A stretch of DNA of 64,000 nucleotides. It comes from Candidatus Altiarchaeia archaeon (GTDB lineage Archaea > Altiarchaeota > Altiarchaeia > IMC4 > QMZM01). Below the pieces are notes generated by a model. The model was not told the origin of the DNA and made no database searches. It saw only the letters and a program-made list of their open reading frames with translations. The number at the start of each line of letters is the position of its first letter. Positions within the stretch are counted from its first letter, which is position 1. A program made the position numbers and the translations under genes. The DNA lies in contig JBAQYF010000019.1 of the NCBI GenBank assembly GCA_049299895.1, positions 71,709 through 135,708 of the forward strand, given 5' to 3'. Shown in pieces: positions 3,124-52,971 of the stretch.

Positions 3124-4203
3124 ATGAAACCAGGAGACATCTTAATGGACGGGGAAACCCTCTTCCAGAACGAGAGCGTATTCACCCCTGCATACGTACC
3201 CAAGGACTTCATACACAGAGACTCTGAACTAGGGGAGATAATGCTTGCCTTAAAGCCGGGCCTACGGGGGGTTGCCCCGGTAAATGCCCTGGTCTATGGC
3301 CCCCCCGGAACAGGCAAGACCTCAGCGGTAAAATACGCCTTCGAGGAACTGAAACAGGCAAGTAAGAAGCTTTTGCCGGTATACATAAACTGCGAGGACA
3401 ACTCCACCCCTTATGCCATATTCGCAAAAATTTACGAAGCAGTCTACGGACTCTCCCCCCCAAGCACTGGAAAGCCCATAGAAGACGTAAAAGAGAGGGT
3501 GTTCTCCAGGCTGAAAAAAGAGGACAGAAGTCTTGTAGTAGCACTGGACGAACTAGACCGCCTGGCAGCCGACAGAACCATCGACAGGGTCCTTGTGGAT
3601 TTTCTAAAGGCCCATTCCACGTATGGATATGACAAAATAGGAATCATCGGCATAACCATCAAAGAAGACCTCCTTGCGGGCCTCGACGAAAAAACCCGAA
3701 GCGTATACAACCCCACGAGAATACTATTCCAGAGATACAAGAAGAACGAGATAAAAGACATCCTTGGAAACAGGGCAAGACACGGGTTCTACGACGGAGC
3801 CCTCAGTGACGGCCTGCTTACATACATCGCTGACAAGACCTATGACTCGGGAGACCTGCGCACGGGAATAGACCTCATGAGGAGAAGCGGCCTGCTCGCA
3901 GAAAAAGAGGCAGTCAGGGAGATAACAAAAGAACACGTAGAAAAAGCCCTCGGAAACCTCCCCCGGGAGCGCATACAAGAGGCTGAGGAAAAGCTCCTGG
4001 AAGAGGATAAAAGCCTGCTTGAAAGAATAAAGAAAAAAGAGTCCTGGACCTCGGGAGACCTCTACAAAAACCTGCACACAGAGAAAGAATGCTCCACCAG
4101 GAAATACAACGAGATACTCGCAAAACTGGAGAAGATGAAACTGATCACGACAGAATACCGCACAGGCATCCGCGGACGGAGCAGGGAAATAAAGGCTCTG
4201 TAA
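3124..4203 (+). CDS. cdc6: Orc1/Cdc6 replication initiator (AAA+ ATPase with C-terminal winged helix)
   Basis: Walker A GPPGTGKTS is present. LVVALDELD is Walker B-like. The overall Orc1/Cdc6 architecture is evident over 359 aa. The start could instead be the in-frame ATG at 3145. Confidence 0.9.
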   Translation: MKPGDILMDGETLFQNESVFTPAYVPKDFIHRDSELGEIMLALKPGLRGVAPVNALVYGPPGTGKTSAVKYAFEELKQASKKLLPVYINCEDNSTPYAIFAKIYEAVYGLSPPSTGKPIEDVKERVFSRLKKEDRSLVVALDELDRLAADRTIDRVLVDFLKAHSTYGYDKIGIIGITIKEDLLAGLDEKTRSVYNPTRILFQRYKKNEIKDILGNRARHGFYDGALSDGLLTYIADKTYDSGDLRTGIDLMRRSGLLAEKEAVREITKEHVEKALGNLPRERIQEAEEKLLEEDKSLLERIKKKESWTSGDLYKNLHTEKECSTRKYNEILAKLEKMKLITTEYRTGIRGRSREIKAL

Positions 4204-4762: not shown

Positions 4763-7336
4763 GTGAAGAACATGCCGAAAGACTCGGAGTACAAAGCGCA
4801 GAAGACGGACTACGACTACCTGGGAGCGTCAAAGGAAGTCCTCTTCATCCGCTTCGGTACCTCGGAAAAAGGCCTCTCCGATGCAAGAGCAGAGCGCCGC
4901 CTCAGGGACTACGGCCCAAACGACGTCTCAAGCAGGAAGAATGCGAGCATATTATTCCAGTTCGTCTCCAAGGCCGCAGACCCGCTCGTAGTGGTCCTCC
5001 TCGCGATAGCCGCTATCTCCCTTTTCTTCGGCGAAAAGATCAACGCAGTATTCGTCTCCGCGATGGCTGCAATAAGCGTCGTCATATCATTTGTCCAGGA
5101 ATACCGCGCAGGAAGAGAAGCAGAGAAACTGAAAGAGATGGTTCACACCAGCGCGGAAGTCTGCAGAGGAGGGGAATTAAAGGAAAAGGACATATGGAGG
5201 ATAGTCCCCGGGGACATAATCGAACTGTCGGCAGGAGACATGGTTCCCGCAGACGTGAGGCTCATCTCCTCAAAGGACCTGTTCATCGACCAGTCCACCC
5301 TGACAGGGGAATCGTTCCCAGTGGAAAAGAACTCCAAGCCCGTGAAAACAGGAGGAACCATTCTCTCGGCACATACGAACGTCGCATTCATGGGCTCTTC
5401 CATAGTAAGCGGAACCGCAACAGGCATAGTCATCCGGACCGGGAGATACACCGAATTCGGAAAAATATCGGAACGCCTCGCAAGAAAAACCCCCGAGACG
5501 AGCTTTGACCGGGGCATAAAGGCATTCACCTGGTTCATGATAAGATCCATGCTCCTCCTGGTAGTGGCGGTGTTCGCCATAAACTCCGCCTTGAAAGGAG
5601 ACTACGTCGAAGCACTCCTCTTCTCCCTTGCAGTCGCGGTAGGCCTGACGCCCGAGATGCTCCCGATGCTCGTAACAGTGAACCTGTCCAAGGGAGCGCT
5701 GTCGATGGCAAAAAAGAAGGTCATAGTAAAGCGCCTGCACTCCATCCAGAACTTCGGAGCAATGGATACCCTCTGCACCGACAAAACAGGCACGCTCACA
5801 TTAAACGAGATAGTCCTTGAAAAACACGTAGACGTCCTCGGAAACGAGAACGAAGACGTCCTAAGATACGCATACATAAACAGCTTCTACCAGACGGGCC
5901 TAAAGAACCTGCTGGACATGGCCATCCTAAAACACCAAAAACTGCTTATAAAAGAATTCAACAAAATAGACGAGATACCCTACGACTTTGAAAGAAAATT
6001 AATGTCCGTCGTCGTGGAAAGCGAAGAACGCCGCGCCATAATAACAAAGGGCGCAGACGAGGAGATATTCAAAAGATGCAACAGGTACATCCTCGAAGGA
6101 GAGATAAAAAAGACAGACCCTGAAATGCTCAAACGCTTCAGGGAAGAAGTAGACAAACTGCAACTGGAAGGATTCCGGGTGCTTGCAGTCGCATACAAAG
6201 ACATAGAAACAAAGGGCCAATACTGCAAGACAGACGAAAGCAACCTGATACTAAAGGGATACGTCTCGTTCCTCGACCCGCCGAAACCGGATGCGGCAAA
6301 CGCGATAGAAGCACTAAAAAAAAGAGGCATAGACACGATAGTACTGACGGGCGACAACGAACTGGTCACAAAAAAGATATGCGGAGACGTAGGCCTCGAC
6401 GTAAAAGAGATAATAACCGGGGACAGGATAGAAAAAGCAAGCGAACAAGAACTCAGGGAACTGGTAAAAAAATCGAAAGTATTCGCAAGGCTCAGCCCGA
6501 TACAGAAAGAGAAGATAATAAAAGCCCTCCAGAAAAACGGCTGCGTAGTAGGATACCTCGGAGACGGCATAAACGACGCACCAAGCCTCAAAGCGGCAGA
6601 CGTGGGAATATCGGTGAACAACGCAGTGGACGTAGCAAAAGAATCCGCGGACATGATACTACTAGAAAAAAACCTCATGGTCCTCGAAGACGGAGTAATA
6701 GAAGGAAGAAAGACCTTCGGAAACATCCTCAAATACCTCAAGATGAGCTCTTCCTCCAACTACGGCAACATGTTCTCCATGATAGGCGCAAGCATATTCC
6801 TACCATTCCTCCCGATGACGCCGCTACAGATACTACTCAACAACTTCCTCTACGACACATCCCAGATAGCAATCCCGACAGACGAAGTAGACCCAGAATA
6901 CATAAACAGACCAAGACCGTGGAACGTAGGATACGTAAAAAAATACATGCTCACACTCGGCCCCATAAGCAGCATATTCGACTACGCAACATTCGCCGCA
7001 ATGTGGTTCATACTACAGGCGAACACATCATCCCAACAGGCACTCTTCCACACAGGATGGTTCATAGAATCACTCTGCACCCAAACACTCGTAGTATACA
7101 TAATAAGAACAGGAAAAAACCCGCTCAAAAGCACGCCAAGCAGATCGCTCATGCTAATGTCGGCAACAGTCATGGGAATAGCACTCATACTTCCATACAC
7201 GCCGCTAGCAGAACCATTCGGACTCGTCCCCATGCCGCAGGAATACTACATAATACTCGCAGCACTGACCGCAGCATACCTGCTCCTCGTGCAGGAGGTA
7301 AAGAACTGGTTCATAAAGAAATACGGATACGAATGA
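4763..7336 (+). CDS. P-type cation-transporting ATPase, MgtA-like (type IIIB)
   Basis: 857 aa. DKTGTLT phosphorylation motif. GDGINDAPSL hinge motif. N-terminal GLS..AE.RL..YGPN cation-ATPase-N segment. Ten predicted TM segments. A 560 bp upstream leader is present. Confidence 0.85.
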   Translation: MKNMPKDSEYKAQKTDYDYLGASKEVLFIRFGTSEKGLSDARAERRLRDYGPNDVSSRKNASILFQFVSKAADPLVVVLLAIAAISLFFGEKINAVFVSAMAAISVVISFVQEYRAGREAEKLKEMVHTSAEVCRGGELKEKDIWRIVPGDIIELSAGDMVPADVRLISSKDLFIDQSTLTGESFPVEKNSKPVKTGGTILSAHTNVAFMGSSIVSGTATGIVIRTGRYTEFGKISERLARKTPETSFDRGIKAFTWFMIRSMLLLVVAVFAINSALKGDYVEALLFSLAVAVGLTPEMLPMLVTVNLSKGALSMAKKKVIVKRLHSIQNFGAMDTLCTDKTGTLTLNEIVLEKHVDVLGNENEDVLRYAYINSFYQTGLKNLLDMAILKHQKLLIKEFNKIDEIPYDFERKLMSVVVESEERRAIITKGADEEIFKRCNRYILEGEIKKTDPEMLKRFREEVDKLQLEGFRVLAVAYKDIETKGQYCKTDESNLILKGYVSFLDPPKPDAANAIEALKKRGIDTIVLTGDNELVTKKICGDVGLDVKEIITGDRIEKASEQELRELVKKSKVFARLSPIQKEKIIKALQKNGCVVGYLGDGINDAPSLKAADVGISVNNAVDVAKESADMILLEKNLMVLEDGVIEGRKTFGNILKYLKMSSSSNYGNMFSMIGASIFLPFLPMTPLQILLNNFLYDTSQIAIPTDEVDPEYINRPRPWNVGYVKKYMLTLGPISSIFDYATFAAMWFILQANTSSQQALFHTGWFIESLCTQTLVVYIIRTGKNPLKSTPSRSLMLMSATVMGIALILPYTPLAEPFGLVPMPQEYYIILAALTAAYLLLVQEVKNWFIKKYGYE

Positions 7337-8120: not shown

Positions 8121-9386
8121 TCAGCATGAGCCTGCAGATAGTCCGCCGGTGGACGAGTTTAGCACGACGTCGCATCCCGAGAGGCCGGCGTTATATTTGC
8201 AGAGGTTCGTCTTCACGGTCTCGGAATCTATTCCCCCGAACTCGTAGCGGTTGTTTGCAAGCCACGTAGGCGATCCGCTTATGCCCAGGGAGTCTGCTAT
8301 CTTGATATCGGCACTGAGGAGCTCTTTTCCTTTGGTTCCGTTGACGCATTTCTCTATGGTCTTTATTGCTACGCTGCTTATCCCGGAGTCTTCTGCACAT
8401 GTGTGCCAGTCTATTCCTTTTACTCCGTTGGTCGACCTGCAGAATAGATAGTCCAGGAGTTCGTCTGGGCTGTATGCTTTTACGCATAGCTGCACTATGT
8501 CTTCGTCGACTTCATATTGCCCGTGCAGGCTGCTGAATGCTCCATTCGCTTCGCTTGCTATGTAGTGGACGTCCCATGCTAGGGAGTCGCCGAAATTGTC
8601 AACGACAGGCTTCAAGGCCTGGATAGCCTGCCTTCCGTAGGGGCAGTCCGCCATTATGAAGACCTGTATGTCGTTCTTTTTCTCGGGTCTGCATTCGATC
8701 TTGCTTGCGCATTTGACGCAGTCTATCGTTCCGTCATCCTTGTAGCATGCTGGCTCGTACTGTGCGCCTATCCTCAGGGACTGGTATTTGCCGGCGGCTT
8801 CAAGGTAGTCTGATATGTCGGAGTATCCTGCGGCTGTTTTAGCGTCCTCCGAGAACAAAATGGCCGGCAGGTATTTTAATTGAGCGTCAGAGAATAATTT
8901 CGTTCCTTCCGTTGTGCTGTAATCCACGGTCGTTACGGTCAGCCCGGGGAAAACGTCCAGCAACTGGGTTATCACATCATCCACGAAAACACATTCTTCA
9001 CAGCGCTTGTCGGAGAGGACGATGACGTTGACCTTCTGGGCTGCCGAGGCTAATGTTGTAGTGGCGGCTGCCTTTTGCCCGGTAGTCGTTACAACTGAGA
9101 GGGGCATAGTAGTCGGGTTCTTGTCGGATGATCCGTTGGAGGGTATAATGCCGGCATTTTTCAGGGAGGTTATCTTTCCGCTCAGATTGTTTATCAGGAC
9201 TATCGAGTAGACGTTCAGGAGCAGTATCAGCACGGCCAGGCCGATTACGACGTATTGCATCGTATTATGGGAGACTTCTTTCGCATCATTTCTTCCGGTG
9301 GCTTCTTCCACGACCTGATCAAAGTTATTATCGTTCGAGATATCATCATTCATGTTTTTCTTCCTGTGCTTTGTTTCTTCATCCAT
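8121..9386 (-). CDS. Membrane-anchored thioredoxin-fold protein, DsbA-like thiol:disulfide oxidoreductase
   Basis: N-terminal TM anchor. CEEC (CxxC) motif. A second Trx-like half containing CPYG. C-terminal G.SGSPTW..N segment typical of DsbA family proteins. Confidence 0.5.
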   Translation of the reverse strand: MDEETKHRKKNMNDDISNDNNFDQVVEEATGRNDAKEVSHNTMQYVVIGLAVLILLLNVYSIVLINNLSGKITSLKNAGIIPSNGSSDKNPTTMPLSVVTTTGQKAAATTTLASAAQKVNVIVLSDKRCEECVFVDDVITQLLDVFPGLTVTTVDYSTTEGTKLFSDAQLKYLPAILFSEDAKTAAGYSDISDYLEAAGKYQSLRIGAQYEPACYKDDGTIDCVKCASKIECRPEKKNDIQVFIMADCPYGRQAIQALKPVVDNFGDSLAWDVHYIASEANGAFSSLHGQYEVDEDIVQLCVKAYSPDELLDYLFCRSTNGVKGIDWHTCAEDSGISSVAIKTIEKCVNGTKGKELLSADIKIADSLGISGSPTWLANNRYEFGGIDSETVKTNLCKYNAGLSGCDVVLNSSTGGLSAGSC

Positions 9387-9619: not shown

Positions 9620-10264
9620 ATGCAAAGCGAGAATCGGGAGGAATACCTGGAAGCAATATACGGCCTTTTGGAGGAGGGATACGAGGTCTCTCCCACCAGG
9701 ATAGCAAGGAAGCTAGGCATTAATCCGTCGAGCGTTTCCGAGATGCTGAAAAAACTGGACGCCGAGGGCTTCGTGTTATGGAAGCCTTATGGGAACGTCG
9801 AACTGACGAAGAAAGGCTTCAAGAAGGCCTCGGGGATGAAGAGGAAGCACCGTCTCCTGGAAAGGTTCCTCTACGACGTACTCAAGATAGAGATCGGAAA
9901 AGTCCACGAACAGGCCTGCCGCATGGAGCACTCGCTCTCGGATGAAGCCGCCGAGGCGCTGTCAAAGTTCATGAACCACCCGGCGAAATGCCCGGACGAC
10001 AACAAGAGGATCCCGAAGGGAACGGAGCCAGAATCCCTGAGAACGCTTACGGACCTCAAGCAGGGGGAGACTGCATCCATCGTCTTCCTGGAAGGAGGAG
10101 ACGAGTTCAAGAACAGGATACGCTCGGTCGGAGTGGTGGAAGGAAAAATGGCAAAGGTAGTCGCAAAAGAACCCTTCGGAGGGCCCCTTGTGATAAAGGT
10201 CGGGAGCACGCAGATAACCCTCGGGAGGGGCATGGCATCCAAGGTGAGGGTGGTTGCAGGATGA
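9620..10264 (+). CDS. DtxR-family metal-dependent transcriptional repressor with C-terminal FeoA (SH3-like) domain
   Basis: N-terminal HTH (EEYLEAIYGLLEEGYEVSPTRIARKLGINPSSVSEMLKKL) is typical of DtxR/MntR. A C-terminal FeoA-like segment is present. The stop overlaps the feoB start in ATGA. Confidence 0.75.
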   Translation: MQSENREEYLEAIYGLLEEGYEVSPTRIARKLGINPSSVSEMLKKLDAEGFVLWKPYGNVELTKKGFKKASGMKRKHRLLERFLYDVLKIEIGKVHEQACRMEHSLSDEAAEALSKFMNHPAKCPDDNKRIPKGTEPESLRTLTDLKQGETASIVFLEGGDEFKNRIRSVGVVEGKMAKVVAKEPFGGPLVIKVGSTQITLGRGMASKVRVVAG

Positions 10265-11958
10265 AGATACTCCTAATAGGCAATCCGAACGTCGGGAAAA
10301 GCTCGCTTTTTTCAAGGCTCACGGGAGTGGAAGTAGTCTGCTCGAATTATCCCGGGACGACGGTCAACTATTCAACCGGAACAGTCAGATGCGCAGGGGA
10401 GAAGGCCGGGATAATAGACGTTCCCGGGACGTACTCTCTCAAGGCTGAGAACCCGGCGGAGAAGGTCGCAACAGACATGTTAAAGGACGGCGACGTCATA
10501 GTGAACGTCGTAGACGCAACGAACCTGGAAAGGAACCTCAACCTCACGCTGCAGGTACTGGAATACGGAAAACCCGCCATAATCGCCCTCAACATGAGCG
10601 ACGATGCAAGGCACCTCGGGATAGAGATAGACAAACAGGCGCTGGAAGAGGCCCTCGGAGTACCCGTGGTCGAAACAGTCGCATTAACGGGACAGGGACT
10701 AAAGGAATTGATAGAGAAAATACCCTACGCAAGAAGCGCTCCCCCAGCGAAAAGAACGGATGCCGACCGCTGGAAAGAGATAGGGAGAATACTTGAAAGA
10801 ACCCAGAAACGCCAGGACAAGCAGCACAGCCTCGCAGAACTCCTGGAAGACGCGACGATAAAACCGCTCACAGGAATACCCATCGCACTCCTCGTATTAT
10901 ACCTGCTATTCTCAGCCATCATAGGAGCAGGAGACGCCCTCACAGAATACGCTATCGACCCGTTCTTCCACACAATATACCTGCCCGCAGCCAAGGCGGC
11001 AGTCGAACCGCTCATACCCCGGGGATTGGCGCATAACCTCCTGCTCGGAACAAGCGACGATCCCGTGGCCGGCCTGGGCATGCTCACGACGGGATTATAC
11101 ATACCAATTGGAATGATCCTGCCGTTCGTCATATTGTTCTATCTGGCACTCGGCCTGCTCGAAGACATAGGATATCTTCCGAGGATCGCAACCCTCATGG
11201 ACAACGTGATGCACAGGATAGGCCTGCACGGCTCGGCCATAATCCCCGCCATACTTGGAATGGGATGCAAGGTCCCGGGGATACTTGCGACAAGGATACT
11301 GGAAACCGAGAAACAGAGATTTATTTCCGCAACGCTGATAGCAATATCCATACCGTGCCTTGCGCAGAACGCGGTGATAGTAAGCCTCCTCATGCGCTAC
11401 GGCATACAATACGTAGCGATAGTATACGCGACGCTGATAATAATACACATAGCAGTAGGGCTTCTCCTCAACAAAATGACGAAGGGCGAAAGCCCGGAGA
11501 TACTCCTGGAGATCCCCCCATACAGGAAACCCTCATTCGGGACGACTATCAAAAAGACCTGGATAAGGGTGAAATACTTCCTGAAAGAAGCCGTGCCTTA
11601 TATTATTATAGGTGTATTCATAGCAAACATATTATTCATCACCGGGACCACGCAGAAAATAGCCGAGACCGCAGGACCCACGTTGACCGCCGCCTTCGGG
11701 ATACCGGGAGACGCCGTTCTGGCGATACTCGTAGGCTTCATCAGAAAGGATGCGGCAGTCGGGATGCTCGCGGCAATACCTATGACCCCCATGCAGCTTA
11801 CGATAGCATGCATACTCCTCGTGACCTATTTCCCGTGCATAGCGACCCTTGTGGTATTATACAACGAGCTGGGAATAAAGAACTTCCTAAAGACGATAGC
11901 ATTGATGATTGTTGTAACGTTCGTCACAGGGGTTGTGTTGAAGATGCTTTTGTTGTAG
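10261..11958 (+). CDS. feoB: Ferrous iron transporter FeoB
   Basis: Starts MKILLIGNPNVGKSSLF (G1 box), followed by the G-domain and a polytopic gate domain. The ATG at 10261 overlaps the DtxR stop. The upstream part of ORF 9988-11958 is a non-coding extension overlapping the DtxR gene in another frame. Confidence 0.9.
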   Translation: MKILLIGNPNVGKSSLFSRLTGVEVVCSNYPGTTVNYSTGTVRCAGEKAGIIDVPGTYSLKAENPAEKVATDMLKDGDVIVNVVDATNLERNLNLTLQVLEYGKPAIIALNMSDDARHLGIEIDKQALEEALGVPVVETVALTGQGLKELIEKIPYARSAPPAKRTDADRWKEIGRILERTQKRQDKQHSLAELLEDATIKPLTGIPIALLVLYLLFSAIIGAGDALTEYAIDPFFHTIYLPAAKAAVEPLIPRGLAHNLLLGTSDDPVAGLGMLTTGLYIPIGMILPFVILFYLALGLLEDIGYLPRIATLMDNVMHRIGLHGSAIIPAILGMGCKVPGILATRILETEKQRFISATLIAISIPCLAQNAVIVSLLMRYGIQYVAIVYATLIIIHIAVGLLLNKMTKGESPEILLEIPPYRKPSFGTTIKKTWIRVKYFLKEAVPYIIIGVFIANILFITGTTQKIAETAGPTLTAAFGIPGDAVLAILVGFIRKDAAVGMLAAIPMTPMQLTIACILLVTYFPCIATLVVLYNELGIKNFLKTIALMIVVTFVTGVVLKMLLL

Positions 11959-12057
11959 TATATCAAATTCGACTTATCGAAATTTTAAAACTACTAAAAA
12001 TAAATATCCCCGCAGCAAGCTGCGGAGTATTTACGATGTAAACGTGTTAAGCTTCAT

Positions 12058-12880
12058 TTGAGAGTAATCTTCTTTCTCTTCAGGGGAACCTTGCTGCTCT
12101 ACATATCTTCTGATTATGTCCTCTGTTACGCCGTCTCCAACGGTCCCTATGTATCCCCCATCACTCCAAAACTCTGCTCCCCAAAGCGTTTTCCTAACCT
12201 CGGAAAACGCTCAAAAAGCATACGGGCAGATACGCTTTTCATCACCTGCATCACTCTGGACGGGGCATACCGGGGAGCAGCCCCAACGAAGTGGTTTTCA
12301 TGCTTTTAACGAGGCTGTCGGCTGGTTTCTTGCCTGCGAGCGGAAAAACCTCGATAGATGCGACAGGCTATGACCGAAGACATGCCAGCAAACACTATGT
12401 GAAAAGATGCAAAATGCAGTTGCAGAGCATGAAAACAACCTACTTGGTGGATACTGAATCACTGGCCATACTTGGAGTTCACACCACCGTAACCCGCAAA
12501 CACGACACCAAAATACTGCTGCCTGTCGTCAGGCAGGCAGAAGAACATTATTTTATAGAAAGCGTCCGCGCGGACAAAGGATACGATGACCAAAAAATAC
12601 GCAACACCCTGCGTGAGGCGGGCATACGCCCGCTCATAAAACACCGGGAATTCAAGCCTTTGGACAAGGCACACAACGCCCGCATGAAAAAAGAGGACTA
12701 CAACCAAAGAGCCATGAGCGAATCAGTAAACAGCATGACCAAACGCAAGCACGGAGACACACTACACACCAAAACTTACTGGACACAATTCAAAGAAATA
12801 CGCCTAAAAGCCATAACCCACAACATCGAAAGATGCATAAAAACAATGCATCAAATAAGGAATTCAATCAAGCTAATAAT
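12058..12880 (+). pseudogene. IS4/IS5-like DDE transposase, disrupted by at least two frameshifts
   Basis: Transposase-like segments are spread over three + strand frames: 12058-12309, 12116-12373, and 12291 to about 12870. Typical DDE_Tnp_1 pieces are present (IDATGYD, ADKGYDD, KHREFKP...HNARMKK). The 3' part of ORF 12291-13214 is a shadow of the opposite-strand ATPase. Confidence 0.5.
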
Positions 12881-12940
12881 TTTTAATTTTAATTCCTTCT
12901 TGGGGGAGTATGCCGTATTCGTGGACGAAATGTCCATTTT

Positions 12941-14194
12941 TTACATCATATACTTCCACAGCGGCACATATTCTATTTCTAATCCGTCTCTTGTCTCCTT
13001 TTTTTCCAGGTCTTTTGTTACGACGAGCAGATTTTTTGCATCCAAGGTTTTTGCTGCCTGCACGTTTTTTGTTATATCTGACTGGGGGTTTTCAGAGTAT
13101 TTGACTTCTATCGGGGTTTTGTCTTTTGTGATGAAGTCGATCTCGCCATGTTTTCTCCAGAAGTTTTCAGCCCCCGATCTCTCGGCTACTGCGTTTTCTG
13201 CTAGTTTGGTATAAATTCCCTGATAGTCTGTTTCGTTTTCGAGGGCTGATGCGGCGAGCGTCGTTGTGGTCAGGTATGCTTTTTTTGCTTTTCTCGTCCC
13301 TGCTGCCGCGCTTCCCGTATGGTTGTAGAGTAGTTTTATCAGGAAGGCTTTCTCAAGGTATTTTACGTATTTTGAAGCCGTCTGATACGTTACCCCGAGG
13401 TTTGATGCAAGGTTGCGGTATTCTATCATCATGCCGGGGTTTTTTGCTATCTGTCTGAATATTTCTGCGAGGACGTCTGGTTCTGCGGCATCGTACGTCT
13501 TTGGTATGTCCCCATATATTATTTTTTCGGTTATGCTTCTTACGTATTTTCTTACCTTGTCGTAGTCTGCCTCGTTGATTATTTCCGGGAATCCTCCCCG
13601 GATAAGATAGTTTACAAGCTCTTTTTTGAGGATATCTTTTTGTATTACTGTATCCTTTATTTCTATTCCCTTGAAGTAGAGATATTCCTGATAATTCAGC
13701 GGTTTTAGCTGGAAGTCATATATTCTGCCTGCGAGGCTTTCCTGGGCTTTTCGAATGTTTACGCCTGCCGACCCTGAGACGACGAATTTTATTCCTTTAT
13801 CGAGGTCGTAATATCTCTTGAGTATTATCTGCCAGTCTCTTACATGGCTTATCTCGTCAAGGAAAATGTATACATTCCTCAGGTCCTCTCTGAGTATACT
13901 CTCCTCGTAGGCCTGGATCAGTTTTTCTACTGCATCAGGATCTTTTGCAAAAATCTCGTCAAAGGAGAAGTACATAATCCTCAGGGGATTCGTCTTTTCC
14001 AGCAGGCGGTCTATGAACTGGTGCATGAGAACAGTCTTCCCCACTCTGCGTAGACCGGTAATACATAAGATTTGCTTGTCTTCTTGGTATCGGAGAACTA
14101 CTTCTAAAAGCCGCCTTTCCTTTGGAGGGCTCTGGAAAGCCTTTGAACCGCTCCACCAGGGGTTCTGCCTTACAAGATAATCAACAAGTTCCAT
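12941..14194 (-). CDS. AAA+ superfamily ATPase (COG1373 / DUF4143 type)
   Basis: 417 aa. Walker A GLRRVGKT. Architecture typical of the archaeal 'predicted ATPase (AAA+)' proteins often found next to mobile elements. Its promoter region 14195-14290 is very AT-rich. Confidence 0.75.
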   Translation of the reverse strand: MELVDYLVRQNPWWSGSKAFQSPPKERRLLEVVLRYQEDKQILCITGLRRVGKTVLMHQFIDRLLEKTNPLRIMYFSFDEIFAKDPDAVEKLIQAYEESILREDLRNVYIFLDEISHVRDWQIILKRYYDLDKGIKFVVSGSAGVNIRKAQESLAGRIYDFQLKPLNYQEYLYFKGIEIKDTVIQKDILKKELVNYLIRGGFPEIINEADYDKVRKYVRSITEKIIYGDIPKTYDAAEPDVLAEIFRQIAKNPGMMIEYRNLASNLGVTYQTASKYVKYLEKAFLIKLLYNHTGSAAAGTRKAKKAYLTTTTLAASALENETDYQGIYTKLAENAVAERSGAENFWRKHGEIDFITKDKTPIEVKYSENPQSDITKNVQAAKTLDAKNLLVVTKDLEKKETRDGLEIEYVPLWKYMM

Positions 14195-14314
14195 TTTAGT
14201 AATATAATTGGTTAATTATATATAAAAATCAATTAATACAATTATTAATTTTGTATTAATTACAATTAATACATTTAAAAAGAGTATCTGAAACCAGATA
14301 TATCCCATGGAAAA

Positions 14315-14407
14315 ATGGAGGGGACCTTGAACTACGCAAAGACGATAGGATTGATGCTTGTCGTAACATTCGTCACGGGAACGCTGCTGAAGGTCCTGCT
14401 GCTCTGA
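14315..14407 (+). other. Relict duplicate of the feoB 3' end (30-codon mini-ORF, MEGTLNYAKTIGLMLVVTFVTGTLLKVLLL*)
   Basis: The nucleotide stretch 14330-14407 aligns to feoB 11877-11958 (KNFLKTIALMIVVTFVTGVVLKMLLL*). It ends at a stop codon in the equivalent position. Similarity stops sharply upstream of about 14325. Confidence 0.6.
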
Positions 14408-14412
14408 CAGGC

Positions 14413-15657
14413 TCATTGGGTTACTTCCAGCGAAGCGACCCGGTAATCCTCTTTTACGCCCGGGGCAGTTCCTTTCTTCTGGTTGCGCTCGTATACGAAA
14501 GAGCCCACAGTAGCAATGATGTTGGTGAACACTATTATTATCAGCACCATGTCCGTGAAGCCTGCCGGAACCGCCCTCGTTATCAGGGGCGACGATGCGA
14601 GAACTGCTGCCGCAAGGCCTCTTGGCATCATGGTCCCGATGATTGTCCCGGAATCGGACAATTCTTTTCCGTTGCGCTTTATTATGAGGACCGTCGGTAT
14701 CGCCCTTGCGAGGATAAGAGCCAGGACTATGACGAAAGCCGTTATTAGAAGCGAGCCGTTGAGTATCTTCAGATTGAATAAAAGCCCCAGGTACACGAAG
14801 AAGAAGGTGCGGATGAAAAAGGAGACCTCTTCCTGGAATGCGCGTATGCTCGGATCCAGGACAAAGTTTTTGTCTATCCTGAGGATCCTTGCAAGGTCTG
14901 TCGAATTGCCGAGGACCAGGCCGAAACAGAATGCCGCTATTGCCCCGTTCCCCTGCGAGAATTCCACAAAAGAGTAAAGCAGGAATATGACGGCAACGGT
15001 CATAAGATACCCGAAAGGCAGGTGATGGAAACGCGCAAGTATCCTTATCCAGAATATCCCGAATATGAAAGCAAAAAATGCGCCGACCGCAAAGGCGGAG
15101 AACAGGCCGTTCGACACTTCGGACAGGTCCGCAGACCCGGAGACTATGATGCCGCTTATGGTGATCGCGCCTATTATGCTCAATACGTCAGTCAGGGTCG
15201 CCTCAAGCGTGAGCAGCACGCGGACGCACTCGTTTATGTTCAGCTTGGACGCAAGGGAGATAACGATAGCGGAACTCGGACCCCCGACGACGATCCCCAT
15301 AAGAAGCGCCGGCAGGAGGTCCCAGCCCATGAGATAAAGCGCCGCCATGACCAGTACGCCGTTGAGTGCGAAAACCGACACTGTGTAGACGGTCGCAGTC
15401 GGGAGCTCGTTTATGACCTTCTGGAACTTGAGATTTATCCCCCCGTCGAAGAGTATCATCATGAGAGCAAGTGCGCCGAAGTATTCTGCGAATGACAGGA
15501 AGACCTTGGAGTCGAAACCCGGGAAGCCGTTGGCGATTAGAACGCCTATGGACATTAGTATCAGGACGTCGGGTATCTTTGTCTTCTCGAAGAAAAGCAT
15601 GCTGAAAAAGCCCACGAAGATTATCAGCCCCATTGCGAAAAAGACGGTTTCTATCAT
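14413..15657 (-). CDS. Na+/H+ (cation:proton) antiporter, CPA1 family
   Basis: 414 aa with 11-12 TM segments. Na_H_Exchanger-like layout. A C-terminal cytoplasmic tail is present. Confidence 0.8.
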   Translation of the reverse strand: MIETVFFAMGLIIFVGFFSMLFFEKTKIPDVLILMSIGVLIANGFPGFDSKVFLSFAEYFGALALMMILFDGGINLKFQKVINELPTATVYTVSVFALNGVLVMAALYLMGWDLLPALLMGIVVGGPSSAIVISLASKLNINECVRVLLTLEATLTDVLSIIGAITISGIIVSGSADLSEVSNGLFSAFAVGAFFAFIFGIFWIRILARFHHLPFGYLMTVAVIFLLYSFVEFSQGNGAIAAFCFGLVLGNSTDLARILRIDKNFVLDPSIRAFQEEVSFFIRTFFFVYLGLLFNLKILNGSLLITAFVIVLALILARAIPTVLIIKRNGKELSDSGTIIGTMMPRGLAAAVLASSPLITRAVPAGFTDMVLIIIVFTNIIATVGSFVYERNQKKGTAPGVKEDYRVASLEVTQ

Positions 15658-15786
15658 TGTATCAGATCAAAAAAACAACCCGGCAATCATATATTTAGCG
15701 GATAAGACTATTTAAAACTTTTACCGCAGGAATAACGTCTTTTGCCCATGCGTTCCCTAAACATAAACCCATAAAAGGCGTTTTAC

Positions 15787-16312
15787 ATGCCAGAACAGAA
15801 AACCGATACCGGCACAGGGTTAAACTCGTCGGAGGCGGGAAAAAGGCTGCTCGAATACGGACCAAACAGGTTATCCAGGCCGTATGAAGTAAAGTTCCGG
15901 GATATCGTGAAAGAAGACCATCAGAGGGATACTCGCATCCGGGGCAAGCCTGTTTGCCGCTGTATGGATAGCGTACTACTATGCGGCGTCCATGAACCTG
16001 CCCCTGGCAGAGATACAGACCTACGCCTTCACGGCATGGATAACGGGACACCTGATACTCGCATACATCTCCAGATCCGAGACAGACCCGTTATACAAGC
16101 TCGGACTCTTCTCGAACGGGATAATGAACTATTGGGCGGCGCTGGTGGTGCCGTTCCTCGCACTCTTCATATACGTTCCCGCGGTAGGAACGCAGCTGAA
16201 AGCAACCTGGATACCTATTGGGGAGATAGCGGGCATCGCACTGATAGCCTTCCTTGCGATAATCTGGCAGGAAATAGGGAAAACTATAAAATACCTGAAG
16301 AACAATAGATAA
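15787..16312 (+). pseudogene. Internally deleted P-type cation ATPase: N-terminal ~35 codons joined out of frame to the C-terminal ~140 codons
   Basis: ORF 15787 starts with the cation-ATPase-N motif GLNSSEAGKRLLEYGPNRL and then loses similarity. A second frame (15896-16312, after an in-frame stop) reads ...ILASGASLFAAVWIAYYYAASMNLPLAEIQTYAFTAWITGHLILAYISRSE...FSN...YVPAVGTQLKATWIPIGEIAGIALIAFLAIIWQEIGK. This matches the last TM helices and the NARSE-like segment of type II P-type ATPases. About 2 kb of core sequence is missing. Confidence 0.55.
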
Positions 16313-46703: not shown

Positions 46704-47432
46704 TTACGTCTTTATCATGAATCTCACCGCCAGAAACGGCTCCATATTCTGGTGCGGCACTCCTTCCCCGGTGTTGTTGATCTCTATGCTGTAGTCGGAC
46801 ATGTTGAGATCCGGGGGCGGAGCAGCATATAGATTTGTCCGGGTTATTTTGCCCGGGACTGCACCTGTCGGATCGGCGGTAGTTCCGGTATCAGACCCAA
46901 CCAACCAGGCATCGTGCTTGTGGACAGGCATCTGTTCCAGGGTTATGTTAATTGTCTCGTTTCCGCCCCTGGAGCCCTGGGCTCGGTTGATAAGCCCGTC
47001 TCCCTGGCCTTTTCCGATGGGCACCCTGCTACGCATGTCAGGCAACTTGAAAGTAGTGGCACCGTTTCCCCCATACAGGATGCCGATATAAAAATATAAG
47101 GCAGGATAATCCACTATGTTCAGCTCCTGGCCCTCGCACGCAAGCCACCCGGAAGGCACGGTATCCCCGGCAAACATCCTGATCTCCCCGGTATAGACCG
47201 ACGGCCAGCTTGTCCGGCAATCCCCTGCCAGGCATATCCCCGGGGAGGATAACCTGCTGCCCGCGCCTGATATATTTATGTCCCCAGCAAGGCTGACACC
47301 GCCGGACGCATTGACCCCTCCGTTTTTTATTATGACGCTACCGCTCTGGGCCATGAGCATCGCGGAAATCATAAACACTGCGACTACGGACGCAATTTCC
47401 AAACCTCCTGAAGCCTTAAAATTGAATTCCAC
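46704..47432 (-). CDS. Phage tail collar domain protein (MdpB / COG4675-like), paralog 3 of 3, N-terminal TM or signal
   Basis: GEIRMFAGDTVPSGWLACEGQELNIVDYPALYFYIGILYGGNGATTFKLPDMRSRVPIGKGQGDGL...GGNETINITLEQMPVHKHDA matches the tail-collar (PF07484) consensus almost position by position. Confidence 0.7.
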   Translation of the reverse strand: MEFNFKASGGLEIASVVAVFMISAMLMAQSGSVIIKNGGVNASGGVSLAGDINISGAGSRLSSPGICLAGDCRTSWPSVYTGEIRMFAGDTVPSGWLACEGQELNIVDYPALYFYIGILYGGNGATTFKLPDMRSRVPIGKGQGDGLINRAQGSRGGNETINITLEQMPVHKHDAWLVGSDTGTTADPTGAVPGKITRTNLYAAPPPDLNMSDYSIEINNTGEGVPHQNMEPFLAVRFMIKT

Positions 47433-47435
47433 TTT

Positions 47436-48173
47436 TTAAGTTTTTATGATATACGCGATCACCAAGTATGGTTGCATGTTCTCGTGCGAATACCCACTTC
47501 CGGCATTTAGTGTTTCAATAGAACCGTTGGCCATGGATAAGGAGCCCTCCAAGAGAGAATACCGATTGCGGCTGGGATCTATTCCAAAAACATTCCCGCT
47601 TGGAGTACTCGAATCCCCGTTCCCCGCAGCATAAGCCTTCAGCATCCCGGTGTGAGTGTGAAGCGGCATCTGGCTTAAGGTCAAGTTCTCCGACTCGTTG
47701 CCCCCCATCTCGCCAAGGCTTCTATCGGTCAGCCCGTCTCCCTGACCTCCCCCAATAGGAGATCTACCCCTCAGGTCGGGCAGCTTGAAAGTAGTATCAC
47801 CGTCTCCGCCGTATGCGATCCCGATCACGGCGTACAATGCAGGGTAGTCAGCGATGTTCAGCTCCTGGCCCTCGCACGCAAGCCACCCGGAAGGCACATT
47901 ATTCCGTGCAAACATCCTTACTTCTCCAGTTAGGCCCCCGGACCAGGTTGTCCTGCATGTCCCGGCGATGCACAGCTCGGGCGCATATACCTTTGACCCC
48001 GACCCGTAAACGTTTATGTCTCCGGCCGTCTCAATGCTGTCTGAAAGCAACACCTGCCCGTCGCGCACTGTAAAGTTCCCGCTGCAAATCAATGCAGATA
48101 CGAGACAGAACAATAAGACAAATGGAACGATATGCATTTTCTTCAACTTACGCGATTTGTTTTTCAATTTCAC
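47436..48173 (-). CDS. Phage tail collar domain protein (MdpB-like), paralog 2
   Basis: GEVRMFARNNVPSGWLACEGQELNIADYPALYAVIGIAYGGDGDTTFKLPDLRGRSPIGGGQGDGL...NESENLTLSQMPLHTHT. Confidence 0.7.
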   Translation of the reverse strand: MKLKNKSRKLKKMHIVPFVLLFCLVSALICSGNFTVRDGQVLLSDSIETAGDINVYGSGSKVYAPELCIAGTCRTTWSGGLTGEVRMFARNNVPSGWLACEGQELNIADYPALYAVIGIAYGGDGDTTFKLPDLRGRSPIGGGQGDGLTDRSLGEMGGNESENLTLSQMPLHTHTGMLKAYAAGNGDSSTPSGNVFGIDPSRNRYSLLEGSLSMANGSIETLNAGSGYSHENMQPYLVIAYIIKT

Positions 48174-48908
48174 TCAGGTTTTGATCATGTAATTCAATAC
48201 GACATAAGGTTTCATATTATTATGAGGCAGCCCCCCTCCAACAGCAGAAATGTTGGCTCCGGTTGAGGACATGTTTACAAGAACGGTCGTGTTGCTGCTG
48301 TAGCGGAGTGCTCCACCCTGGCTTCCTGGCACGTTCCCGCCAGGGTTATCTCTGTTGGAGGTGCTACTACCGATTGAATGGGCGCTGTGATTATGCACAG
48401 GCAGGTTGACTGCCGAGAGGGTCACGCTCTCGTTCCCTCCGGAAACGCCAAGATCCCACTCCGTCAGACCCTCGCCCTGTCCGGCCGCTATCGGCGCCCT
48501 GCCCCGGAAGTCCGGTATCTTGAACGACGACACGCCGTCTCCGCCATACGTTGTACCTATCACGACAAAGAGATCCGGGTAAGCGGAGGGATCAAGCGAC
48601 GTTCCGTTGCAAAAGAGCCATCCCACAGGCTCATTAGATCCCGCATATAGACGTATCTCGCCAGTGTTGGCCCCGGACGAATCCCAAGCAGTCGTGCAGC
48701 TTCCCGCCAGGCATACCTTCGACGCATATATCTTTGCGCCCGCGCCGGACAAGTTGAGCAAGGAATTTGCCTCTATGCCTCCGGACACGTTAAGGGTTCC
48801 GTTGCGCAGATTAACCTCCCAACTCTGAACGAGATATGATACCAATATCCCTGATGCCGCAGCGAGCAGCAAGTAATATTTCAGCCTGCTTTGACGGAAT
48901 TTACTCAT
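48174..48908 (-). CDS. Phage tail collar domain protein (MdpB-like), paralog 1
   Basis: GEIRLYAGSNEPVGWLFCNGTSLDPSAYPDLFVVIGTTYGGDGVSSFKIPDFRGRAPIAAGQGEGL...NESVTLSAVNLPVHNHSAH. Confidence 0.7.
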   Translation of the reverse strand: MSKFRQSRLKYYLLLAAASGILVSYLVQSWEVNLRNGTLNVSGGIEANSLLNLSGAGAKIYASKVCLAGSCTTAWDSSGANTGEIRLYAGSNEPVGWLFCNGTSLDPSAYPDLFVVIGTTYGGDGVSSFKIPDFRGRAPIAAGQGEGLTEWDLGVSGGNESVTLSAVNLPVHNHSAHSIGSSTSNRDNPGGNVPGSQGGALRYSSNTTVLVNMSSTGANISAVGGGLPHNNMKPYVVLNYMIKT

Positions 48909-48947: not shown

Positions 48948-50987
48948 TCATAATAGGGTGTTCGACGCAAGCTTGCCCCGCATGCAAAGGCTGCCCGCCG
49001 AATCGATATAAGCCATATTCGTTCCTGCGCTGTTTTGCACCACAAAAGAGCCCTCCCCGGGATACGAGCAATCCAGATCGTAGTCGCTGCAAGTCGTATC
49101 CTGTATGCAGAGGTTGCCCCATTCGTCTATATATGACACGGTCGCATCGCTGCTGTTTTGCACCAGGAACGTCCCGTCCGGCGGAGCACTGCACGACCCG
49201 CCCGCGATGCAGGATCCAGTCAAACGGATCTCTCCAGCATCGCTAAATGATGCAACCTTGTCGCCCGAACTGTTACGAACATAGAAATACGTAATCTGCG
49301 AACCATCGTCCAAAACCGCCAAAACAGTTACAGTATTATTGCACGAACCGCTAACGCCAAAGGGGATGACAATAGCCCAATACTCTTTCCTGGCTGACGC
49401 AACGCCTTCAGACGTTTCAATGCCTTCAACGCCCAGATCGAAGGCAGACTCATTTACATAACCCGTCGACAGTTTCTTTGCAGACATGCTATCATAGTTT
49501 CCCGGGAATACGCCGTAACTGATATTCCCCGCGCCGATCACACCCGCCCCGGAACATGACATGTCCGCGTTGGCGGCAACCTGTATGTCGATCATTACGT
49601 TCCCCATGTTCGTGATATTGGTGCTGTTGGCAGAACTGCTATTCTGCCCAGGACTCATAGAACCAAAACTTACGCTATCCTCCAAGACCGACAAAGCGAC
49701 CAATTGATCGACGATACTATCCCCTGCAGAAGAATTTGAATTATCAATTGAATCACTGGCAGAAACATTACAGGTCCAGGTCCCGTTCAAAGCCTCATGA
49801 TGCAAAGTGAACGCACAGGATACGTTCCGTTCATTTCCGCTCTCGCTTGTAAAAGAGCAGCTTGAATTAGTATAATGAACGTTGTAATCGTCCGGGTCTG
49901 GCGAGGAAACGGTCTGGTGATAAAGGGTCGCGTCGGCAGAAACGATATCCTGGTACCCATTGACGTCCGTGACCGAAGCGTTGCACAAGACAATGGTATC
50001 GTCTGCCACAGACAGGCCGATATTCCCGCCGTCAGAATCGGAAAGAGAGACTCCGTCAACCACGGGAGCCTCGTTAGACCCTGACAGGTTGAAAGGATAG
50101 CTTGCATTCATCGCCCCGCCGTCGTCGCTTACAAGCACGTTGCCCTCGTTGTCGCACAATTCCGCGTAGGCCCTGTACTCCCCTGCGGGATTGTCGGAAG
50201 TATTCCATGCGCCGGAATTCCACCACACCTGATCAAGCGCAAGCCCGGAGCCTGCCGTAATGATCCTCGGGGAAGAGTCGTTGACTATCGTAGCCTCGTC
50301 GATCCACGCCCCCTGTTCATTCTTCTTTTGCACGACCATGCGCAGGTATGCAAGTATGGAAGTAGACCCGGAGTTGTTCACCTCGGATTTGTCCACGCCG
50401 AAATAAGAGGACCCGGATAACATGAGGCCGCCGGTATTATTGACGTATACGTTCACAGTCCATATCTCCTTGTATTCGTCCCCGTAGGGGATAGTGTAAT
50501 TGTATTCGTAGGTCAATCCGCTGGAAATAGACCCTGCGGGAGTCATCGAGGCGTTGTTCACTGCCGCGGTCCCACCCTTCAGGAGAAGCGTGATCACTGC
50601 CGAATCGAGGCTGGATGCTCCGCCGATGTCGGTCGCGTTGACCCGTATCCTTATATCCTGCCCCTGGGTGAAAGAGGCAGATGCGCCCAGGGAGGAATCG
50701 TATGTCAGGGGCGAGGAGACAGTCATCTGTATGTCGGCTATGGTAATGACCCTTACCTCGCTTACTTCATACGTCCCGGCGGAGGAACAATTAACCCACC
50801 AATAATAGTCTCCCAGATCAAGGGACTCGTTTATGGTCAGGGACTGCTCCGTATTATTCGCTATCTCGCAGGAATCGCAGGCAAAGGCCGGACCTGAAAG
50901 CAGAAAGACGCAGAGACAAACGTAAATGGAACAAACGATTCCATGCGCTCGCATCGTGCGCCCAATCTTCTTTCTATTCGCTTTCAT
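48948..50987 (-). CDS. Large secreted/surface protein, about 680 aa, rich in N-glycosylation sequons and Cys, no recognised domain
   Basis: Likely start MKANRKK with a signal peptide (IVCSIYVCLCVFLLSGPAFA). Many N-x-S/T sequons. Cys-rich C-terminal region. Confidence 0.5.
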   Translation of the reverse strand: MKANRKKIGRTMRAHGIVCSIYVCLCVFLLSGPAFACDSCEIANNTEQSLTINESLDLGDYYWWVNCSSAGTYEVSEVRVITIADIQMTVSSPLTYDSSLGASASFTQGQDIRIRVNATDIGGASSLDSAVITLLLKGGTAAVNNASMTPAGSISSGLTYEYNYTIPYGDEYKEIWTVNVYVNNTGGLMLSGSSYFGVDKSEVNNSGSTSILAYLRMVVQKKNEQGAWIDEATIVNDSSPRIITAGSGLALDQVWWNSGAWNTSDNPAGEYRAYAELCDNEGNVLVSDDGGAMNASYPFNLSGSNEAPVVDGVSLSDSDGGNIGLSVADDTIVLCNASVTDVNGYQDIVSADATLYHQTVSSPDPDDYNVHYTNSSCSFTSESGNERNVSCAFTLHHEALNGTWTCNVSASDSIDNSNSSAGDSIVDQLVALSVLEDSVSFGSMSPGQNSSSANSTNITNMGNVMIDIQVAANADMSCSGAGVIGAGNISYGVFPGNYDSMSAKKLSTGYVNESAFDLGVEGIETSEGVASARKEYWAIVIPFGVSGSCNNTVTVLAVLDDGSQITYFYVRNSSGDKVASFSDAGEIRLTGSCIAGGSCSAPPDGTFLVQNSSDATVSYIDEWGNLCIQDTTCSDYDLDCSYPGEGSFVVQNSAGTNMAYIDSAGSLCMRGKLASNTLL

Positions 50988-51021
50988 AGACCATCTTCGC
51001 ATGATAAATGGATAAAGTAGC

Positions 51022-52923: not shown

Positions 52924-52971
52924 TATTTTTTTCGTTGGTTTACAAATCCCGGCATGCTTGGATCAATGCGA

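Follow-up and report, generated by a model that had tools for sequence, protein, structure and literature searches.

In the genome of an uncultured archaeon of the Candidatus Altiarchaeia, recovered as a metagenome-assembled genome (MAG), the 3′ end of the transporter gene feoB occurs twice within a stretch of 64 kb that was analysed as a whole (the window), and the two copies lie at the edges of a 2,449-bp segment whose origin is the subject of this report. The FeoB protein, of 565 aa as in its relatives, is 100% identical to P0001, an entry from the annotation of a Candidatus Altiarchaeia MAG; the best-scoring relatives in a protein database search are Altiarchaeota proteins. Directly 5′ of feoB, and overlapping it by 4 nt, lies a dtxR-feoA fusion gene which keeps this position in all relatives. 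Downstream, the segment carries remnants of two insertion sequence (IS) transposase genes, a single intact gene, which encodes an ATPase, and an AT-rich block; at its far edge, a 30-codon open reading frame (ORF) terminates in the second copy of the feoB end, referred to here as the relic, and the convergent gene for an NhaP-type exchanger begins 5 nt beyond the relic stop codon (Table 1).

Table 1. Features at and around the 3′ end of feoB. Positions are those of the window; a dot stands where no strand applies.
Feature	Position	Strand	Basis or remark
GILT-domain gene	8121-9386	-	
DtxR-type iron-dependent repressor fused to FeoA domain	9620-10264	+	Pfam Fe_dep_repress, Fe_dep_repr_C, FeoA
feoB, 565 aa, intact, chimeric	10261-11958	+	Pfam FeoB_N, Gate, FeoB_C
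Left part of repeat in live gene, host-derived	11880-11900	+	20/21 identical to L019, 17/21 to relic
Crossover core ATTGATG, copy 1, attL-like	11901-11907	+	Same in live gene, relic and L019; L019 switches partner across core
Foreign replacement terminus of feoB, 16 codons and TAG	11908-11958	+	Divergence from L019; codon usage
Inserted segment, 2,449 bp	11908-14356, equivalently 11901-14349	.	Absent from L019; repeat spacing; composition
Spacer, 82 nt, containing GC hairpin	11959-12040	.	
GC hairpin CCCGCAGCaaGCTGCGG	12009-12025	.	15 nt past stop of IS200 remnant; then T-run on minus strand
IS200/IS605-type Y1 transposase gene remnant, C-terminal third only, one frameshift	12041-12262	-	Pfam, NCBIfam, translation
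IS5-family DDE transposase gene fragment, 5′-truncated	12291-12875	+	Pfam DDE_Tnp_1; NCBIfam transpos_IS5_2
AAA_14 ATPase gene with DUF4143 (PD-(D/E)XK) domain, intact, 417 aa	12941-14194	-	Pfam; PADLOC PDC-S01
AT-rich block, 134 nt, GC 0.21	14195-14328	.	Composition; repeat search
30-codon ORF: ATG in foreign DNA, then relic	14315-14407	+	Gene call in one assembly; predicted ORF only
Left part of relic, feoB-like but foreign	14329-14349	+	5/21 differences from L019; reads FeoB-like LNYAKTIG
Crossover core ATTGATG, copy 2, attR-like	14350-14356	+	
Former host end of feoB, now displaced, 16 codons and TGA	14357-14407	+	47/51 identical to L019; host-like codon usage
NhaP-type Na+/H+ exchanger, convergent with feoB	14413-15657	-	Pfam Na_H_Exchanger; abuts feoB end in L019

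The duplication takes the form of a direct repeat: positions 11880-11958, the final 79 nt of feoB, have a counterpart at 14329-14407, with a start-to-start spacing of exactly 2449 nt. The copies agree at 57/79 positions, which are distributed over a left part (17/21), a central ATTGATG (7/7) and a right part (33/51); the longest exact run common to both is of 11 nt, and a stretch identical at 18/19 nt adjoins the crossover point that is described below. Both copies are read in the same frame and each is terminated by a stop codon, TAG at 11956-11958 and TGA at 14405-14407, in agreement with a preliminary description of this DNA that had reported a second feoB terminus at 14330-14407 with coincident ends. 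That description had also noted an abrupt loss of similarity upstream of about 14325, and the present data bear this out, as the score observed 5′ of 14329 was reached by 94/500 shuffles and a weak homology in this region was rejected for being no better than the shuffled controls. It had, in turn, assigned the two peptides to the wrong copies: the live gene ends in KTIALMIVVTFVTGVVLKMLLL and the relic in KTIGLMLVVTFVTGTLLKVLLL, the live-type FeoB terminus string being IVVTFVTGVVLKMLLL*. The relic ORF with its in-frame ATG is present as described, and an exact look-up of its 30-aa product returned only the contig of the same organism.

BLAST comparison within the 64-kb window gave the repeat an E-value of 9e-8 at the nucleotide and 7e-9 at the amino acid level, and the same self-search in nine other feoB loci did not detect a comparable repeat (best E 0.018). 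These control loci, together with E-values in the range of 1e-7 to 1e-9, exclude a chance match of a low-complexity hydrophobic helix, a possibility that the preliminary description had listed as one that would refute its reading. An error of assembly is a natural concern, the source being a MAG, but a shared exact run of 11 nt is too short to mislead an assembler, and a second assembly record, an 11,265-bp contig from Logan SRR28062479 which possibly stems from the same reads, is 100% identical to the window over the whole region. An artefact or a fortuitous similarity is thus scarcely credible as an explanation of the repeat.

The organization of the site in the absence of the segment is provided by a 901-bp JGI metagenome contig (L019), found from the antiporter side, which belongs to a strain ~96% identical to the window and encodes an NhaP fragment 98% identical to that of the window. 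In L019, feoB directly abuts the convergent Na+/H+ antiporter gene, with nothing in between. Its DNA matches window positions 15137-14329 and, overlapping, 11930-11786, and removal of 11908-14356 from the window yields a sequence that aligns to L019 over the whole length of both, 903 nt against 901, with 37 differences and an identity of 95.9%. Within 11786-11907 it is identical to the live gene at 121/122 positions, the one change, at site 11892, being private to L019, and to the right of the core it follows window 14357-15137, on into the NhaP gene. At all sites where the two copies differ, L019 agrees with the live copy to the left of ATTGATG, where the distinguishing positions are TCCT vs ACGC at 11885-11888 and C vs G at 11900 (live vs relic), and with the relic to the right of it. 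This switch from live-like to relic-like sequence places the exchange point within the shared 7 nt (11901-11907 = 14350-14356). Named by analogy with attachment (att) sites, the junctions read …GATAGCATTGATGATTGTTGTAAC… (attL), …GATAGGATTGATGCTTGTCGTAAC… (attR) and …GATAGCATTGATGCTTGTCGTAAC… (attB, the empty site), while the predicted attP would read …GATAGGATTGATGATTGTTGTAAC…, with GAACTACGCAAAGACGATAGGATTGATGATTGTTG as its arm. The differences between L019 and the window are spread unevenly, with 1/122 nt to the left of the junction vs 36/781 to the right (Fisher p = 0.049), an imbalance that was set aside in view of a large bin-to-bin scatter.

L019 also makes it possible to assess which half of each copy is native. 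In the right part, the live gene departs from L019 at 20/51 positions, vs 36/781 in the rest of the alignment to the right of the crossover (p = 2e-12), and the relic at 4/51. To the left of the core, the counts are 1/21 for the live gene and 5/21 for the relic (for the relic, binomial p = 0.002 vs a strain-level rate of 4.6%). Codon usage points in the same direction: the last 16 codons of the live gene employ TTG for 3/4 leucines, vs 5/74 elsewhere in feoB (p = 0.003), together with GTT for 2/5 valines, while the relic employs CTG and GTC, as do feoB, NhaP and the neighboring genes. Outgroup lineages represented by L008, L012 and L015, whose FeoB proteins are 87-90% identical, differ in the right part from the relic by 12-14 nt and from the live gene by 16-19 nt, and share 13-14/16 residues with the former and 10-12/16 with the latter; they weakly back the right part of the relic as the host end, more weakly than L019 and codon usage do. 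In addition, the GC content of the insert is 0.43 vs 0.52 in the flanking genes, and that of third codon positions in the ATPase gene is 0.49 vs 0.63-0.68.

Read in this manner, the live feoB consists of host sequence up to 11907 followed by 51 foreign nt (16 codons and a stop), and the relic is a chimera of 21 foreign nt, contributed by the incoming DNA, and the original 51-nt host end. A host-derived left part joined to a foreign right part in the live gene, with the reverse in the relic, is the reciprocal pattern of a single crossover with an incoming 79-nt feoB-like stretch. The foreign end that is now expressed retains a FeoB-like protein sequence despite a nucleotide divergence of 35%. 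The earlier suggestion that the whole duplicated stretch was derived from an element must accordingly be narrowed to the last 17 codons, the rest being host sequence, with the first 21 nt of the relic added to the incoming share; likewise, in the C-terminal membrane helix of FeoB, it is the end of the helix that is foreign. Taken together, three independent lines of evidence, L019, codon usage and the 87-90% relatives, support an integration into the 3′ end of feoB that supplied a replacement terminus and left a displaced relic, as had been proposed, and a 2,449-bp insertion by a single crossover, with replacement of the feoB terminus, is considered highly probable from these sequence comparisons.

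A different polarity of events could be envisaged, in which the arrangement of the window is the older one and L019 arose by secondary deletion between the repeats, each copy having a single origin. Recombination between direct repeats would give exactly the structure of L019, and a single empty-site contig is available; such a history would nonetheless still require an earlier insertion that brought in the second feoB end, and the three outgroup lineages have a single feoB terminus and no insert. Furthermore, within feoB only 11908-11958 is atypical in codon usage, and the left part of the relic is more diverged from the host than its right part, as if the copies had already been chimeric. 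This course of events is regarded as unlikely.

The loci of the relatives, obtained via the protein database and exact-protein look-ups (an FeoB scan of a genome collection returned only relatives of <=44% identity, of no use for synteny), also provide information on the surroundings of the target. Downstream flanks were compared from window position 11959 onward and from 6175 in L008, 3940 in L012, 2499 in L015, 9672 in L026 and 9699 in L028. In the 87-90% relatives the upstream genes are kept and the downstream genes differ, feoB being followed by a P-type cation ATPase gene in two lineages (L008-L011 and L015; confirmed by Pfam) and by a CARDB-domain gene in the third (L012-L014). The expectation that feoB is normally followed by the Na+/H+ antiporter thus holds for the closest strain, L019, only. 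With neighbors that vary by lineage between a P-type ATPase, a CARDB-domain gene, NhaP, an aminotransferase and small ORFs, the feoB 3′ end appears to be a recurrent synteny breakpoint; as a recurrent integration hot spot it was rejected, no relic being present in the nine other feoB loci. The NhaP exchanger gene is best taken as the native right-hand neighbor of the target site, and in L018 it is found again, next to a P-type ATPase gene and a DUF3795 gene.

The content of the insert differs in part from what had been described. The "multiply frameshifted IS4/IS5-like transposase" of the preliminary description resolves into two pieces, a minus-strand remnant of IS200 type (matching positions 72-121/121 of Pfam Y1_Tnp, E 4e-11; NCBIfam transpos_IS200, E 5e-12) and a 5′-truncated IS5 fragment that covers positions 108-288/289 of transpos_IS5_2, its first ~107 residues being gone, with no N-terminal part of the IS5 transposase in any frame. 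The two IS genes are cut short where they meet (~12262-12291), so that deletions have taken place inside the insert. The hairpin, whose earlier position of about 12003 is corrected to 12010-12025 (12009-12025 in Table 1), is probably an IS200 subterminal hairpin or a terminator; as a dispersed repeat of the repetitive extragenic palindromic type it was rejected, with one copy only in 64 kb. No other copy of any part of the insert was found within the window. The region around the hairpin (window 11999-12030) shares an exact 21-nt sequence (AATAAATATCCCCGCAGCAAG) with L008 2172-2192, in the spacer between a serpin and a GILT gene; this spacer (2040-2290) contains three or four GC hairpins, with GGAGTAT directly after two of them or more, and the hairpins of the window and of L008 may form a family of IS200-associated or terminator hairpins.

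With fragments of two transposase genes inside the segment, a transposition event by an IS5-type or IS200/IS605-type element, the repeat being its target-site duplication, deserves consideration. Both transposase genes are truncated, however, terminal inverted repeats are absent from 11908 and 14356, and a single, internal hairpin (12009-12025) was found, which does not designate either element as the mobile unit. IS5 target duplications comprise a few bases, unlike the 28-79 nt with an identity of 72-86% seen here, and IS200/IS605 elements make none; moreover, the right part of the live gene is a different sequence from the relic and not a copy of it. Transposition is consequently held to be very improbable. 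A 14-nt inverted match between 13016-13029 and 14355-14368 was disregarded, ~1 such match being expected by chance in the region by our own estimate. Nor does the segment resemble a casposon, an element type with a Cas1 integrase, terminal inverted repeats and a target duplication of about 14-15 bp: neither Cas1 nor PolB is encoded in the insert.

The sole intact gene of the insert is the opposite-strand AAA+ ATPase gene of the preliminary description, which had been called mobile-element-associated and can be reassigned: its product matches the PADLOC PDC-S01 models over its full length (PDLC04787, E 1.4e-60, residues 26-417), and DUF4143 is listed as a PD-(D/E)XK domain. The gene, which would represent the cargo of the insert, is thus classified from these matches as a candidate defense gene of PDC-S01 type, combining an ATPase and a PD-(D/E)XK nuclease. 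Members of this family, ATPases fused to a PD-(D/E)XK nuclease, are abundant in archaea and have no experimental validation as defense proteins (PMC12988326, PMC3424549). One PDC-S01 ATPase homolog sits among AbiEii, ParE and Bro-N genes, and no relatives of the ATPase were found on viral contigs. We know of nothing that links the PDC-S01 family to integration at gene ends. The closest non-self homolog in a collection of 5.8 billion proteins is only 57% identical, so that no second copy of the element is known.

The ATPase gene as a mobile unit flanked by gene-end duplications was rejected, since no such arrangement is seen at two homolog loci (L020 and L023). A related idea is that the segment is a minimal, recombinase-less cassette by which a defense-type ATPase-nuclease gene spreads through imitation of the 3′ ends of host genes, and which would be inserted harmlessly by host recombination or by its own PD-(D/E)XK nuclease/ATPase. 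If true, this would be a route of defense-gene transfer distinct from integrases and transposases; the two ATPase homolog loci lend it no support, and it is deemed improbable. On L020, the contig with the closest ATPase homolog, the last 33 nt of a Ham1-like gene (8705-8737) recur at 8873-8905, 168 nt downstream, with 85% identity and a second 31-nt repeat in between; the ATPase gene is not flanked by this repeat. It is also observed that, by our own count, ~29/120 matches to PDC-S01 ATPase homologs are on contigs of 1.3-1.8 kb, barely above gene length, vs ~7/120 matches for similarly sized antiporter homologs, which suggests that this ATPase family often resides in repeated or strain-variable DNA that breaks assemblies.

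The AT-rich block of the preliminary description separates the divergently oriented ATPase gene and 30-codon relic ORF, upstream of both, and is presumed to contain the ATPase promoter. It includes two tandem repeats of 33 nt (14212-14244 and 14245-14277) with 79% identity to each other, as well as overlapping palindromes based on TTAATTA/ATTAATAC, an iteron- or arm-site-like architecture, and it may be what is left of recombinase arm sites or of a replication origin.

These observations can be joined into a scenario in which foreign DNA, presumably circular or circularized, carried a 79-nt imitation of the feoB 3′ end and underwent one reciprocal recombination with the chromosomal feoB 3′ end inside the shared ATTGATG, so that 2,449 bp now separate feoB from the antiporter gene convergent with it. 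The resulting feoB is host sequence to 11907, followed by 16 foreign codons and a foreign stop, and still encodes a 565-aa transporter with its last membrane helix preserved; 2.4 kb downstream, the 51 nt with which feoB originally ended are left as a dead relic, preceded by 21 nt from the incoming arm. The exchange and its products are shown by the comparison with the empty site. The incoming DNA could have been a small site-specific integrative element or an integrative plasmid, whose attachment site would mimic the end of the target gene and so render integration harmless. IS200 and IS5 insertions and deletions would subsequently have destroyed the recombinase gene and the remaining genes of the element, unless the recombinase acted in trans, and the survivors would be the PDC-S01-type ATPase-nuclease gene, a candidate anti-virus gene, the AT-rich upstream block and the IS debris. 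The attachment-site reading is suggested by the fact that the arm has an abrupt beginning 21 nt 5′ of the crossover and spans exactly the sequence that completes the ORF, by the identical core of 7 nt amid otherwise diverged sequence, which matches the overlap region of a tyrosine recombinase in size, and by the conservation of FeoB-like protein sequence despite 35% nucleotide divergence. To the statement as a whole, namely insertion and terminus replacement by a site-specific recombinase, followed by decay, we assign a probability of roughly 0.45.

Several observations weigh against it. No integrase or recombinase is encoded in the insert, where only the IS200 remnant, the IS5 fragment and the ATPase gene were found, and no integrase domain was detected in the Pfam-scanned ORFs of >=130 aa of the window, which comprise most, not all, such ORFs; no tRNA gene lies near the site, nor is there an Rfam match, and terminal inverted repeats are lacking at 11908 and 14356. 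An attP form, a second copy of the element and a donor of the terminus were not found in metagenome and viral collections: a degenerate pattern for all four att forms (ATTGATGMTTGTYGTAACRTTYGTCAC) and a back-translated pattern for the donor of the replacement terminus (TFVTGVVLKMLLL*) had no match in metagenome or viral contigs, two metagenome and three viral scans being empty, in a metagenome collection that also missed the window and L019 and hence does not include this population. ATPase relatives in other genomes, the closest of which is only 57% identical, are not flanked by gene-end duplications. The polarity, insertion in the window and not deletion in L019, is drawn from one 901-bp contig, the outgroups and codon usage, and the crossover adjoins the 18/19-nt near-identical stretch, which would also be suited to host homologous recombination. 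The analogy with integrative elements that the preliminary description had drawn is accompanied by no integrase, tRNA gene, terminal inverted repeat or second copy, and the mechanism is one that we infer.

Integration could instead have been driven by homology: related Altiarchaeia DNA, composed of a truncated feoB 3′ end and an IS/ATPase region, would have been joined to the chromosome with no dedicated recombinase, either as a circle, possibly generated by an IS, through a Campbell-type crossover of the host, or by homology-facilitated illegitimate recombination. The replacement terminus is a genuine same-clade FeoB C-terminus (VTFVTG..LK.LLL, with 19/26 aa identical to P0002 by our own count) and is about as distant from the host as the 87-90% relatives are; the crossover abuts the 18/19-nt stretch, an integrase is absent, and the IS fragments in the segment could generate circles or deletions. 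Such short homology, of 72% overall, would however be a poor substrate for a RadA-type recombinase, and the sharp start of the arm 21 nt upstream and its exact coverage of the ORF end fit an evolved attachment site and not a random fragment; purely illegitimate joining, in addition, predicts that the 21 nt of the left part of the relic are identical to the host, and they differ at 4-5/21 sites. Integration by homology is a plausible, if somewhat doubtful, alternative, over which site-specific integration is favored only slightly.

Integration into the distal part of protein-coding genes is not without precedent. Of the integrated elements described in Thaumarchaeota, 14/68 are located in the 3′-distal part of protein genes, with one supplying a new stop codon (PMC6563490). 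The case of the NitEve-E2 type in Nitrososphaera evergladensis (Krupovic et al. 2019, PMC6563490) is similar in its location in the last codons of a protein gene, in the direct repeats at both ends, in the presence of an empty site in a close relative, and in the restoration of the ORF with an element-supplied stop. The elements of that study possess short exact att repeats (median 17 bp) and most carry an integrase, and in the case cited only 8 nt and the stop were replaced, by non-homologous sequence (PMC6563490), whereas here 51 nt were replaced by a diverged homologous imitation, with 7 nt identical at the crossover, in a segment of 2.4 kb with no integrase. The feoB segment nevertheless displays several of the features by which integrated mobile genetic elements are recognized, namely flanking direct repeats, an empty target site in a close relative and a target gene reconstituted by element sequence; the recombinase gene that usually lies beside an att site is absent.

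Elements that reside in tRNA and tmRNA genes, SCCmec in rlmH/orfX, and ICESt1/3 in fda likewise have att sites that duplicate the 3′ part of the target, so that a functional gene is regenerated and a partial copy remains at the far end; in these systems the two copies of the duplicated part usually differ little or not at all, and the recombinase gene adjoins att. In contrast, the feoB copies share only 72% identity, and a recombinase gene is missing. Integration by a single crossover of the Campbell type has the same topology, with a direct duplication around the insert and each copy chimeric at the crossover, but the homology it normally needs is longer than 79 nt and closer than 72%. No new mechanism is revealed by the feoB case, 3′-distal integration into protein genes with ORF repair being already documented in archaea and bacteria; what is unusual is the length and divergence of the substitute end, the lack of a recombinase, the small size, the candidate-defense cargo and the host lineage, none of which demands a new mechanism.

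The interest of the locus lies in its resolution to the base pair, in a poorly studied archaeal lineage, of a case in which foreign DNA entered the end of an essential-type transporter gene and left the gene intact. It shows that gene 3′ ends that are squeezed against a convergent neighbor can act as landing sites, and that a candidate defense gene of PDC-S01 type arrived through insertion at a gene end. The empty and filled alleles, furthermore, provide a concrete set of junctions (attB, attL, attR and the predicted attP) with which sequencing reads can be screened.

Other features of the window bear no direct relation to the insertion. Three tandem paralogous genes (~242-245 aa) occupy 46704-48908 on the minus strand; both of those that were scanned contain a phage tail collar domain (46704-47432 and 48174-48908), the middle one (47436-48173) being outside the scan; beside them, within 48948-63912 and also on the minus strand, lie ORFs of 696 and 633 aa with no Pfam match and one of 3,646 aa that was outside the scan. 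Next to the antiporter gene, a P-type cation ATPase gene (15737-16312) is a pseudogene, reduced to a Cation_ATPase_N piece (15787-15930) and a Cation_ATPase_C piece (15992-16312); compared with the 810-aa gene in L018 it lacks ~1.9 kb of its middle, with the junction near 15911-15917, and the Na/Ca exchanger gene that is located between NhaP and the ATPase gene in L018 is missing from the window. An intact paralog of the pseudogene is found at 4763-7336. Finally, an Orc1/Cdc6-type gene (Cdc6 lid, AAA_16) is located at 3124-4203, 6 kb 5′ of the feoB operon, and a replication origin may lie close to it.

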